Shown: positions 53,001 through 56,000, counted from the stretch's first letter. The stretch: 64,000 nucleotides of DNA from Escherichia coli (GCF_030013205.1 NZ_CP122648.1); one strand, 5' to 3'. Numbers are program-made.

Positions 53001-56000
53001 GGTAATCCGCAGCCGGTTTTTGCCAATACGGAAAAATTGAACGATGCTGTGGAAGAGCTGCGTCTGTTGCTTAATAACCACCATGACCTGAAGGTTGTGG
53101 AAACACCAATCTATGGTTATGTGTGGCTGAACATGGAAACGGCACATCAGCTTGAGTTGCTATCGAGTCTGATTTGCCGGGCCTTGCGCAAATAATTCCT
53201 GAACTTCAGAATCATCTTGCTGCTGCTTCGATTCAGCAAGGATAAAGGGTATGATAGTGAAAAGGGATAAAAGCATTGTCATCTGCGGCAGCTATGAGTA
53301 ATGTTGGCCCTAACGAATAGCGGTTGCTTAAACGAATCCGACTCTCACATTATCAGGGGTATAAAAATGGAAACTACCAAGCCTTCATTCCAGGACGTAC
53401 TGGAATTTGTTCGTCTGTTCCGTCGTAAGAACAAACTGCAACGTGAAATTCAGGACGTTGAGAAAAAGATCCGTGACAACCAGAAGCGCGTCCTGCTGCT
53501 GGACAACCTGAGCGATTACATCAAGCCGGGGATGAGCGTTGAAGCAATCCAGGGCATCATCGCCAGCATGAAAGGTGACTATGAAGATCGTGTTGACGAT
53601 TACATCATCAAAAATGCCGAGCTCTCCAAAGAACGCCGCGATATCTCCAAAAAGCTGAAAGCTATGGGCGAAATGAAAAACGGCGAAGCGAAGTAATTCC
53701 TGTTTTATTCAATGAGGGTTGCCCGGCAACCCTCATTGCTCATTGATTCTTTTCTGTGTATCAAAGTCATCATTCCCATCTGATAACCTATCGAAATTAG
53801 CGACAGACATCTTCTGTATGCAGCAAGGAAAAAAGTTCTGTAACTCCATTGTTATTAACCGCACTGGTTACTAACACGTTGTGCGCTCCAGCTTCCCGTA
53901 ACCAACTTTTCACCAAAGATATTTGTTCCATGCTGGCTAAATCTGCTTTGGTTACTACTCCAATGACCGGGCGATTCATTGACGAGGTAAAGCCTGGCGA
54001 AAAAGGGGACCACGGTGCGTCCGCATTAAGCACCAGGGCGATAATGTCCGCTTCGCAGGCGCTGACCAACAGAGCACTGTAGAGGCTGCGGTTTTCGAGG
54101 TATTCGCCTGGTGTATCAATGGTGGGCGGGGACCAGACGATTGCCTGCGTTTTCTGATAATGAATATTTTCGCCACGCAGACATTGCGTGAGTGACGTTT
54201 TTCCGCACTGGCTGGGGCCGATAAGCATCATACGTTGCATAACGTCAGGTCCGCGTAATGGGGCAGGCGGTAAAGCGCATCATTTCACCCAGCGTACGGG
54301 TAACCTGGCTAAGTGCATATTCAATGGCAGAAACATCACCAGTCAGCACTACGGCACCGGTAAAACGATCAAGAAAACCGATCTCTACAGCGCCTGATTT
54401 TGTGGCGATATCGCATGCGATGATAGATGCTTCGCTGGGGGTTATCGTCAGAATGCCAATAGCAGAAACGGTGTCTGGTAACCCCAATTTCTTAAACAGA
54501 TCCTTCCCAGGATTGGCGATGACATGTGCCAGCGTGACCTGCTTACCAGGGACATATTCCTGAATCATCCGTTCAGTTGTGTGCTGAGTTGTCATTATCC
54601 CTCCACCATCTGACGCCACATGGCTTCATGTGGACGGGCAATCACCGACCGATAGACCAACAAACCTTTTTCTCCCGCACGCTCGCTGGCGACAGAGACC
54701 GCGTTATTAACATCTGAAATATCGCCAGCAACCACCATGTAGCATTTTCCGCCAATGCCAAAAGCCATATGCACGCGAACGAGAATGACATTCGCAGCTT
54801 TGACAGCACAATCGGCAGCGTCAATGCAGGCAGCGACACTCCAGGTTTCGACTACGCCGACAGCCCGGTGCTGCTCAACATGGTTCAGTCCGCTGATTGC
54901 AGAAAGGAGACTGGGATGAATATTCGGCAGGACAAGACTGTCGACCAGCATTTCACCAGCAAGGGAAGCACCGCTGTTGATGGCCTGTTGCACCGCGCCC
55001 ACATCGCCACCGAGCATCAGCAGAAATTTTCCGGGGCATAGCGTTTTGCTGACCAGTAACTCAACGTTTACGCTTTTCAGCATGGCGTCGCCGGTTTCCA
55101 TCCCTTTCGCGATACTGCTAAGTTCTAAAATACCTACCGCTTTCGACATCGTTAACCTCTCACAAGCGTAATTGCGTTTTCTGTCACATCGCTGACCATG
55201 CCATCAATACTGGCATGAATGGGGGCACCTAATGTGCCGTGTGGAATTTGACCTACACATTGCCCATGAACGACGCGATCGCCTTTTTGTACACACGCAA
55301 TTGCGCTGGCACCGATGTGCTGGCGTAACAATAACGTCACTTTTTCGGTCTGAGGCACCTGTTCAGACAATGGCGCATCCTGATACCACGGGGTTAAGCC
55401 AAGTCTGGTTACCAGCCGTTTTACGGGAATCAGTCGATAATTTGCCATGGGATCTGCAGGATTTAAGGTACCTTCGTAACGGAGATTTTGTGCGCGTAAT
55501 TCCTGCTTAAGCAGGCGGTTTATGCGCATTGGTGAAATTCCTACCGGACAGGCGACGCTGGCGCAGACGTTGCACTCCGAACAGGTGAGCGCCGTCAGTA
55601 ACAGTTGTGGCGTAGCGAGCTGTTGGTAGTTAACCGCACGTACTAATAAATGGGGTGCCAGTTCGTGACCGATTAAATGACGTGGGCAGAGATCGGTACA
55701 CAAGCGGCATTGCTCACAAACAGTTTTCGCGACGGCAAGTACGCTGCGGTCATTCTGCATTCGACGTTGGATCAGTGAATGAGAGTTGGGTAAAACCAGC
55801 AAGCCGCCAGTGGTTTTGCTGACGGGGGGGGGGCGAGCGATGTGACCAAACTTCCCATCATCGGCCCGCCATTGATAATACCAGGAGCATCCACAGTTGC
55901 GCCGCCCGCCAGCGCCAGGACTTCACGTAAAGACATGCCGATGGGGACGGTTACCGTTATTGGTTTCGCCACTGCACCATTAACGGTGAGTGTGCGGCGC

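Follow-up and report, generated by a model that had tools for sequence, protein, structure and literature searches.

Rho-dependent transcripts have steady-state 3' ends that lie immediately after stable stem-loops without U-tracts; according to Dar & Sorek (2018), such ends result from trimming by PNPase and RNase II, with the rut sites located just downstream (PMC6061677). The stem-loop at the 3' end of tmaR (yeeX) mRNA of Escherichia coli resembles this class in several respects. It is stable and has no U-tract, its mapped 3' end follows the stem immediately, and the sequence just downstream is C-rich and G-poor. Read-through past it is sensitive to bicyclomycin in published K-12 data, and its folding energy resembles that of intrinsic terminators. 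Unlike the members of that class, the tmaR hairpin is accompanied by a weak, displaced T-rich stretch, and for this reason it may be a mixed or transitional case of the kind recognized by Dar & Sorek.

Canonical intrinsic terminators provide another comparison. The tmaR hairpin is a stable, G+C-containing structure located shortly after a stop codon, and Enterobacter, Lelliottia and Leclercia are among the genera with a canonical A-tract/stem/T6-11 terminator at the orthologous position. Unlike such terminators, the E. coli stem is not followed within 0-2 nt by a U-tract (canonically ~7-8 nt), the transcript ends at the stem base instead of 7-9 nt into a U-tract, and read-through is Rho-sensitive, as measured in K-12 over 800-nt windows that include prophage DNA. 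The locus shares with REP/BIME elements that it is an intergenic palindrome between convergent genes, able to stabilise the upstream mRNA against 3' exonucleases, whereas it differs from them in being single-copy per genome, with no REP consensus and no Rfam match. A repeated-element family of the REP/BIME type was considered and rejected on the basis of one locus per genome (5235-5417 genomes) and no Rfam family. With the bidirectional terminators between convergent genes described by Ju, Li & Liu (2019), the palindrome has in common a symmetric hairpin that belongs to two convergent units. It is unlike those elements in that it has neither the upstream A-tract nor the downstream U-tract that enable termination in both directions, and its minus-strand tail is A-rich.

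We analyzed the locus in a 64,000-nt stretch of E. coli DNA (GCF_030013205.1 NZ_CP122648.1), referred to as the window. It is probable, though well short of certain, that the palindrome is a protective stem-loop that defines the 3' end of tmaR mRNA, with termination taking place mainly downstream in a Rho-dependent manner. Published K-12 datasets already list both the hairpin and the 3' end, and the element falls into a class that has been described before. The features used below are as follows.

53367..53696, plus strand: tmaR (yeeX) coding sequence, 109 aa (NCBIfam NF040881 PTS_reg_TmaR and RefSeq annotation of an identical region)
53710..53738, plus strand: palindrome, 3' stem-loop of tmaR mRNA (repeat search, folding, covariation)
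53739, plus strand: equivalent of the dominant K-12 tmaR Term-seq 3' end (PMC7815308, coordinates mapped onto the window)
53739..53745, plus strand: second tandem CTCATTG copy (repeat pair search)
53746..53758, plus strand: displaced, imperfect T-rich stretch ATTCTTTTCTGTG (K-12 version TTCTTATCTG)
53739..53938, plus strand: untranslated, C-rich and G-poor sequence antisense to the pduV 3' end, proposed Rho loading/termination zone
53797..54240, minus strand: pduV, last gene of the pdu operon, convergent with tmaR (TIGR02528 EutP/PduV, 186 bits)
53979..53980, no strand: core/variable boundary in K-12-type (pdu-negative) strains (blastn and MG1655 annotation of CP4-44/yoeF)

The initial annotation of this stretch had pointed out a long perfect palindrome between convergent yeeX and pduV, and both its exact position and its stem of about 13 bp were confirmed. 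Positions 53710-53738 form a perfect inverted repeat of 14 + 1 + 14 nt with 100% complementary arms, the left arm (53710-53723) being CAATGAGGGTTGCC, the right arm (53725-53738) GGCAACCCTCATTG, and the spacer a single C. Folding of the RNA gave a 13-bp stem with a 3-nt loop and an energy of -21.0 kcal/mol for the hairpin alone; the 81-nt region around the palindrome reached -23.3 kcal/mol (z = -3.75 relative to shuffles). Because the expected number of chance matches of the palindromic 29-mer was 0.00 in 100 shuffles, chance does not explain its presence. Within the 64-kb window the 29-mer matches itself only, and a search there for perfect hairpin palindromes whose arms are 14 nt or longer gave just one more.

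The palindrome starts 14 nt past the stop codon of tmaR, the product of which matches NF040881 with 188.5 bits (cutoff 170), and lies 59 nt beyond the stop of pduV, so positioned that a pduV transcript would be predicted to cross it too. The pduV annotation was also taken from a strain that is identical across the 341-nt query region. A consensus promoter/terminator scan gave no promoter-like sites near the palindrome, and an Rfam search of positions 53200-54300 at permissive thresholds returned chance-level matches only, e.g., mir-367 with E = 4.4.

Where the mature transcript ends was established from published maps, all of them from K-12, a pdu-negative strain in which the palindrome is identical and the T-stretch carries a T-to-A change. 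In MG1655, tmaR occupies 2079032-2079361 (-). The Term-seq data of Adams et al. (2021) list a 'primary' yeeX 3' end at 2078989 (-) (PMC7815308 Supplementary file 1). The file has a separate tab for each growth condition and contains yeeX three times; two of these entries give read counts of 205,828 and 66,213. This position is stop + 43, i.e., the C right after the last G of the palindrome and 1 nt after the stem. An independent TRS analysis places the primary tmaR terminus at 2078977-2078993 with a peak at 2078985/6 (PMC10687069 Supplementary Data 2/3). The peak corresponds to +4/+5 after the stem (window 53742-53743) and the range reaches 2078977 (window ~53751); the same paper prints the identical hairpin with -21 kcal/mol. 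Mapping of yeeX 3' ends had been proposed as a check on the palindrome, and the published K-12 ends indeed fall 1-5 nt after the stem.

Longer transcripts share this end. SMRT-Cappable-seq reported four transcript variants, with starts at 2079416, 2079468, 2080718 (yeeA-tmaR) and 2081326 (sbmC-yeeA-tmaR), all four of which end with b2007. The palindrome is the common 3' end of the tmaR, yeeA-tmaR and sbmC-yeeA-tmaR transcripts too. yeeX/tmaR is not listed in the tables of the TERMITe paper.

The T-rich stretch that had been described as following the palindrome does exist; it is, however, weak and not adjacent to the stem, from which it is 8 nt removed. The intervening nucleotides are the second copy of CTCATTG, the first copy (53732-53738) forming the end of the palindrome's 3' arm. 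Beyond the perfect stem comes the tail CUCAUUGAUUCU, with 3 U in its first 8 nt. Its T-tract score, calculated like the other T-tract scores from the explicit tail, is 1.05, as compared to 4.95 (Enterobacter) and 6.28 (Leclercia) for orthologous canonical terminators. Since the second CTCATTG separates the stem from the T-run, the consensus terminator scan gave no terminator call at the palindrome. The repeat also allows an alternative register, in which 53709-53716 could pair with 53739-53746 and directly abut the T-rich stretch. From this register the T-tract score is 3.56, and the stability is -15.3 kcal/mol versus -21.0 kcal/mol for the perfect register. The K-12 T-stretch is interrupted by its single T-to-A change, and in strain LH13-b one CTCATTG copy is missing. 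On the minus strand, the tail is A-rich with a T-score of 0.33.

Further downstream, published data reveal a bicyclomycin-sensitive Rho termination region (PMC7815308 Supplementary file 2). Its peak, at 2078833 (-) and on the strand opposite to yoeF, lies 156 nt beyond the mapped tmaR 3' end, which corresponds to window ~53895. The region has a Rho score of 14.16 with p = 4.5e-50, calculated over 800-nt windows of which the downstream one lies in the CP4-44 prophage remnant (PMC7815308). The downstream/upstream reads changed from 25/248 in untreated cells to 414/290 with bicyclomycin (PMC7815308), a rise of downstream coverage of ~14-fold relative to upstream, although this extra signal need not all be tmaR read-through because bicyclomycin can unmask other CP4-44 promoters. 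The C:G counts after the stem are 13:5 in 53739-53788, 17:8 in 53864-53913 and 15:7 in 53889-53938; as an indication of a rut-like zone this excess is compositional and modest.

These data qualify the proposal that the palindrome terminates yeeX. A hairpin is located at the yeeX 3' end, with two K-12 maps placing that end 1-5 nt after the stem, and to this extent the proposal holds. As a terminator composed of a hairpin and a T-run it does not hold well: the T-run is displaced and weak (score 1.05 vs 4.95 in Enterobacter), the end is at the stem base, and a Rho region is found 156 nt downstream.

We suggest that RNA polymerase reads through the hairpin because an adequate U-tract is absent after the stem. 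Rho would then load on the untranslated C-rich, G-poor RNA antisense to the 3' end of pduV/yoeF and terminate transcription within ~100-200 nt. The 3'-to-5' exonucleases PNPase and RNase II would trim the resulting tail as far as the base of the 13-bp stem, which is very stable, producing an abundant and precise 3' end 1-5 nt after it. The hairpin would thus serve to fix the 3' end of the mRNA and to shield it, with a contribution to intrinsic termination that is small at most. It is the combination of the T-score of 1.05, the Rho region, the C:G bias and the correspondence to the Dar & Sorek class that leads to this protective stem-loop reading. From these we infer both the loading of Rho on the 53739..53938 stretch and the exonucleolytic trimming. 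Taken together, the position of the mapped 3' end and the Rho data suggest that Rho terminates the transcript and that trimming follows. A mature end at the base of the stem would result from trimming after either Rho or intrinsic termination and does not by itself distinguish the two; the effect of bicyclomycin speaks for Rho, with the proviso that the 800-nt windows include prophage DNA, in which other transcripts were possibly unmasked.

Comparison of related sequences indicated that it is the RNA structure that is conserved. In an alignment of nine Escherichia sequences (E. coli variants, two further Escherichia lineages, E. whittamii and E. albertii), 97.4% of the stem cells were paired, and double changes that compensate each other, with G.U intermediates, were seen at two pairs. 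Citrobacter and Salmonella have a homologous hairpin. RNAalifold applied to a 20-sequence alignment of the three genera identified 12 pairs, nine of them with compensatory changes; 95.8% of the cells were paired, and the covariation score was reached by none of 500 shuffles. A hand count from the pair-type table of this alignment gave 16 G.U/U.G cells against 2 A.C/C.A cells, which shows that the stem tolerates substitutions that pair only in the tmaR-sense RNA. As G.U pairs occur almost solely on the tmaR-sense strand, the constraint is on RNA and not on a DNA site. Neither the DNA sequence nor its dyad symmetry is what the alignment conserves, since 9 of the 12 pairs change on both sides yet still pair.

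The same strand preference was apparent in a wider set of 80 TmaR loci from different Enterobacteriaceae species, comprising 49 loci without a T-run and 31 with one. Plus-strand RNA was the more stable in 32 of the 49 and in 24 of the 31, respectively, when folded over a fixed 65-nt interval after the stop; these loci share ancestry and are not phylogenetically independent counts. The conservation pattern argues against both a DNA palindrome read by a protein and a requirement for the pdu-sense strand.

A survey of 5426 complete E. coli genomes showed that the palindrome occurs independently of pdu. The 37 nt that contain it were found in 5417 genomes and were 100% identical in 4940 of the 5426, whereas the 5' part of pduV plus pduU was found in only 842 genomes of this set. 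About 85% of the E. coli genomes keep the hairpin in the absence of pdu. A 341-bp query running from the 3' end of tmaR to that of pduV was near-complete in 5403 of the 5426 genomes, and there is one palindrome locus per genome (5235-5417 genomes). In pdu-negative K-12 the palindrome is identical; after it come the final 183 nt of pduV, known as the yoeF fragment, and beyond these the CP4-44 remnant. The similarity between K-12 and the window extends from 50560 to 53979 with 98.1% identity (blastn) and ends inside pduV, which places the K-12 breakpoint 241 nt from the palindrome. The palindrome does not coincide with this conserved/variable boundary, and it is present with or without pdu. Because of this, and because the K-12 breakpoint is inside pduV, the palindrome is not the island junction and does not mark the edge of the pdu island. 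In most E. coli, the deletion of pdu has its true boundary inside pduV, in the yoeF fragment.

The palindrome had also been proposed to be a junction motif or protein-binding site, with an alignment across E. coli with and without pdu suggested as a check. A DNA-level element of this type (junction motif, recombination site or protein-binding palindrome at the core/pdu boundary) would account for a perfect 29-bp palindrome that sits between a core gene and the pdu operon, and in one strain, TUM9812, an IS21-family element (ISEc12) is inserted within the palindrome. We consider it highly improbable, and it is already contradicted by the distribution just described, with 5417 of 5426 genomes carrying the palindrome against just 842 with the pduV 5' part and pduU, and with K-12 retaining both the palindrome and the last 183 nt of pduV up to a breakpoint at 53979. 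It is structure that is conserved and not sequence: the sequence varies while pairing stays (9/12 pairs covary), and G.U pairs spoil DNA symmetry. The element is moreover single-copy and located at the 3' ends of both genes, away from promoters. A different addition concerns pdu-positive strains, where the palindrome might in addition provide the minus-strand mRNA of the pdu operon with its 3' stem-loop, capping both convergent transcripts or, together with polymerase collisions, acting as a bidirectional stop. This would supplement the tmaR 3'-end function and is no alternative to it. The palindrome is the first strong hairpin past the pduV stop, the E. coli stem is all Watson-Crick so that minus-strand RNA folds equally well, and the stop codon of a convergent pduX-like gene falls within the homologous hairpin of Salmonella and Citrobacter. 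On the other hand, the A-rich minus-strand tail has a T-score of only 0.33, the ~85% of E. coli genomes without pdu retain the hairpin, and both the G.U asymmetry (16 vs 2) and the more stable plus-strand folds (32 vs 17 loci) point to a constraint on tmaR-sense RNA only, which makes such a double role doubtful.

The more serious competitor to Rho termination and trimming is that the element is a functional, non-canonical intrinsic (Rho-independent) tmaR terminator that releases RNA in UUCUUUUCU, after which the tail is nibbled to the stem. The hairpin would possibly shift to the alternative register by using the second CTCATTGA, the single-stranded tail would be 10-17 nt before trimming, and Rho would merely mop up read-through. 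The strong hairpin, the T-rich stretch 8 nt downstream of it and the alternative register, which sets the stem against UUCUUUUCU with a T-score of 3.56, are in line with this, and such a register could allow a degree of intrinsic termination. Conservation of the second repeat copy (yTCATTGA) extends over the Escherichia lineages except E. albertii (ATCATTAAC), many other Enterobacteriaceae have a textbook intrinsic terminator at the orthologous position, the TRS terminus range goes as far as ~window 53751, near the expected release site, and mixed or transitional cases were noted by Dar & Sorek (PMC6061677). Several observations speak against release in the U-stretch. The perfect register, more stable by 5.7 kcal/mol, is also the first to form during transcription, the consensus scan made no call, and the dominant 3' end is at +1, outside the U-stretch. 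In K-12 the T-stretch is interrupted (TTCTTATCTG) and the 3' end is nonetheless very abundant. Finally, the downstream/upstream coverage rises ~14-fold on Rho inhibition. We therefore regard an intrinsic terminator as possible but rather unlikely, and retain the protective stem-loop with downstream Rho termination as the preferred reading.

For annotation, the palindrome between tmaR and pduV should be labeled as the tmaR mRNA 3' stem-loop, rather than as an island junction. The finding matters little beyond this correction, though it illustrates the general rule that a hairpin with a nearby T-run need not be an intrinsic terminator. TmaR controls the polar sequestration of PTS Enzyme I, and for this reason the hairpin probably matters for TmaR dosage, which it would affect via mRNA stability. 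Nothing in the present data suggests regulation by the hairpin. The GlnZ sRNA-tmaR interaction known from the literature involves a site in the 5' UTR and is hence unrelated to it. An IS insertion hotspot at the palindrome was also considered and discarded, as just 14 of the 5417 matched genomes were without near-full coverage of the region, and the published yeeW-yeeX ISEc23 hotspot maps within the pduV fragment, outside the palindrome.

The hairpin has a counterpart at nearly all of the 80 TmaR loci, where a stable hairpin starts within ~20 nt of the stop codon, and its downstream context differs between genera. In Enterobacter, Lelliottia, Leclercia, Silvania and Pluralibacter, textbook A-tract/GC-stem/T6-11 terminators are found, and the gene that follows does not belong to pdu. 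Hairpins that lack a U-tract and adjoin a convergent pdu gene occur in Escherichia, Citrobacter, Salmonella, some Kosakonia and Pseudocitrobacter. Most such loci of Salmonella and Citrobacter have a GHMP-kinase-like, PduX-like gene whose end lies 30-42 nt past the stop of tmaR, and in Salmonella the right hairpin arm contains the stop codon and last two codons of this gene. In Kluyvera the hairpin has no U-tract either, and the co-directional gene cobU comes after it.

More speculatively, the tmaR 3' hairpin could represent a natural evolutionary series of termination-mode switching, possibly also including a two-way cap for pdu; we put this forward as a tentative idea that is more likely to be wrong than right. 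At one end of the series there may be the textbook bidirectional intrinsic terminator present at the orthologous position in some Enterobacteriaceae, and at the other end the covarying, U-less stem-loop of Escherichia, Citrobacter and Salmonella, which may rely on Rho. Where the latter genera carry pdu, the convergent pdu gene may crowd or overlap the stem-loop. If the stem-loop also caps the pdu operon mRNA on the other strand in pdu-positive strains, one perfect palindrome would act as a two-way exonuclease stop between convergent units. Base composition was compared over a fixed interval, as was strand stability, in this case a 100-nt stretch that starts 45 nt past the tmaR stop codon. Loci without a T-run had C 27.8 versus G 19.9 and loci with a T-run had C 25.7 versus G 24.0, a difference that, with the distribution of U-tracts among the genera, fits the suggestion of Dar & Sorek that terminators switch mode by gain or loss of the U-tract (PMC6061677).

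In E. coli TUM9812, an ISEc12 element (IS21 family, istA/istB) interrupts the left arm of the palindrome (L003, about 400-3010), the perfect 14+1+14 inverted repeat at window 53710-53738 that we read as the 3' stem-loop of the tmaR (yeeX) mRNA. The insertion point is equivalent to window 53715-53722, is marked by an 8-bp target duplication, AGGGTTGC, and cuts tmaR off from its own hairpin. Since near-full coverage of the region was missing in only 14 of the 5417 matched genomes, the ISEc12 insertion into the palindrome appears to be an isolated event.

Smaller changes were also found at the equivalent of window 53710-53745. 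In E. coli LH13-b (L088, reverse complement), the centre of the palindrome is G and not C, the same as in an inverted palindrome, and only a single CTCATTG copy is left of the tandem pair, so that the stem adjoins ATTCTTATCTG. The inverted centre together with the lost copy suggests hairpin-mediated template switching or slippage. Two other loci (L085 and L086) carry a C>T variant at the centre, and in a third (L087) a T>G change leaves the right arm mismatched.

An association with antibiotic resistance has been reported for a site between yeeW and yeeX where ISEc23 inserts (bioRxiv 10.1101/527788). This site, at position 2368401 of CFT073 (NC_004431.1; L089, about position 402), corresponds to window about 53831. 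It falls within the pduV/yoeF fragment, 34 nt ahead of the fragment's stop; mapped onto the window it is not in the palindrome, and this position would place it inside the putative Rho termination zone downstream of tmaR (53739-53938, plus strand).

The similarity of K-12 to the window stops at 53979/53980, within pduV, and past the equivalent point K-12 carries the CP4-44 prophage remnant. In most E. coli, pduV is reduced to its last 60 codons, annotated as yoeF or as a 183-nt EutP/PduV fragment; the 5' part of the gene and pduU are present in only 842 of the 5426 complete genomes.

In Salmonella enterica subsp. diarizonae (L048, 3345-3376) and Citrobacter (L010-L054), the homologous hairpin at the 3' end of tmaR overlaps the final two codons and the stop codon of a convergent GHMP-kinase-like (PduX-like) gene. 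In most of the loci this gene comes to its end 30-42 nt past the tmaR stop. With a coding end inside the hairpin, the right arm there is under a double constraint, from RNA pairing and from coding.

Within the pdu operon of the window, pduS (55152-56497, minus strand) is broken into two overlapping open reading frames, indicating a frameshift:

55772-56497, minus strand, pduS open reading frame of 241 aa
55152-55802, minus strand, pduS open reading frame of 216 aa

Because of this frameshift, this strain may have a partly defective pdu operon. Strain CFSAN018748, 100% identical to the window over the 341-bp junction query (tmaR 3' end to pduV 3' end), also has pduS annotated as 'frameshifted'.

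Between yeeA and tmaR, a small-protein gene of 16 codons, yoeJ (b4818 in MG1655), is conserved at 53251-53301 (plus strand), and its peptide is identical to that of MG1655. The window has only one other perfect hairpin palindrome whose arms reach 14 nt or more. It lies at 33684-33719, with 17-nt arms (TAAGAAAAGGCCCTAAT/ATTAGGGCCTTTTCTTA) spaced by 2 nt; from its form, AAAAGGCCC...GGGCCTTTT, it looks like a bidirectional intrinsic terminator.
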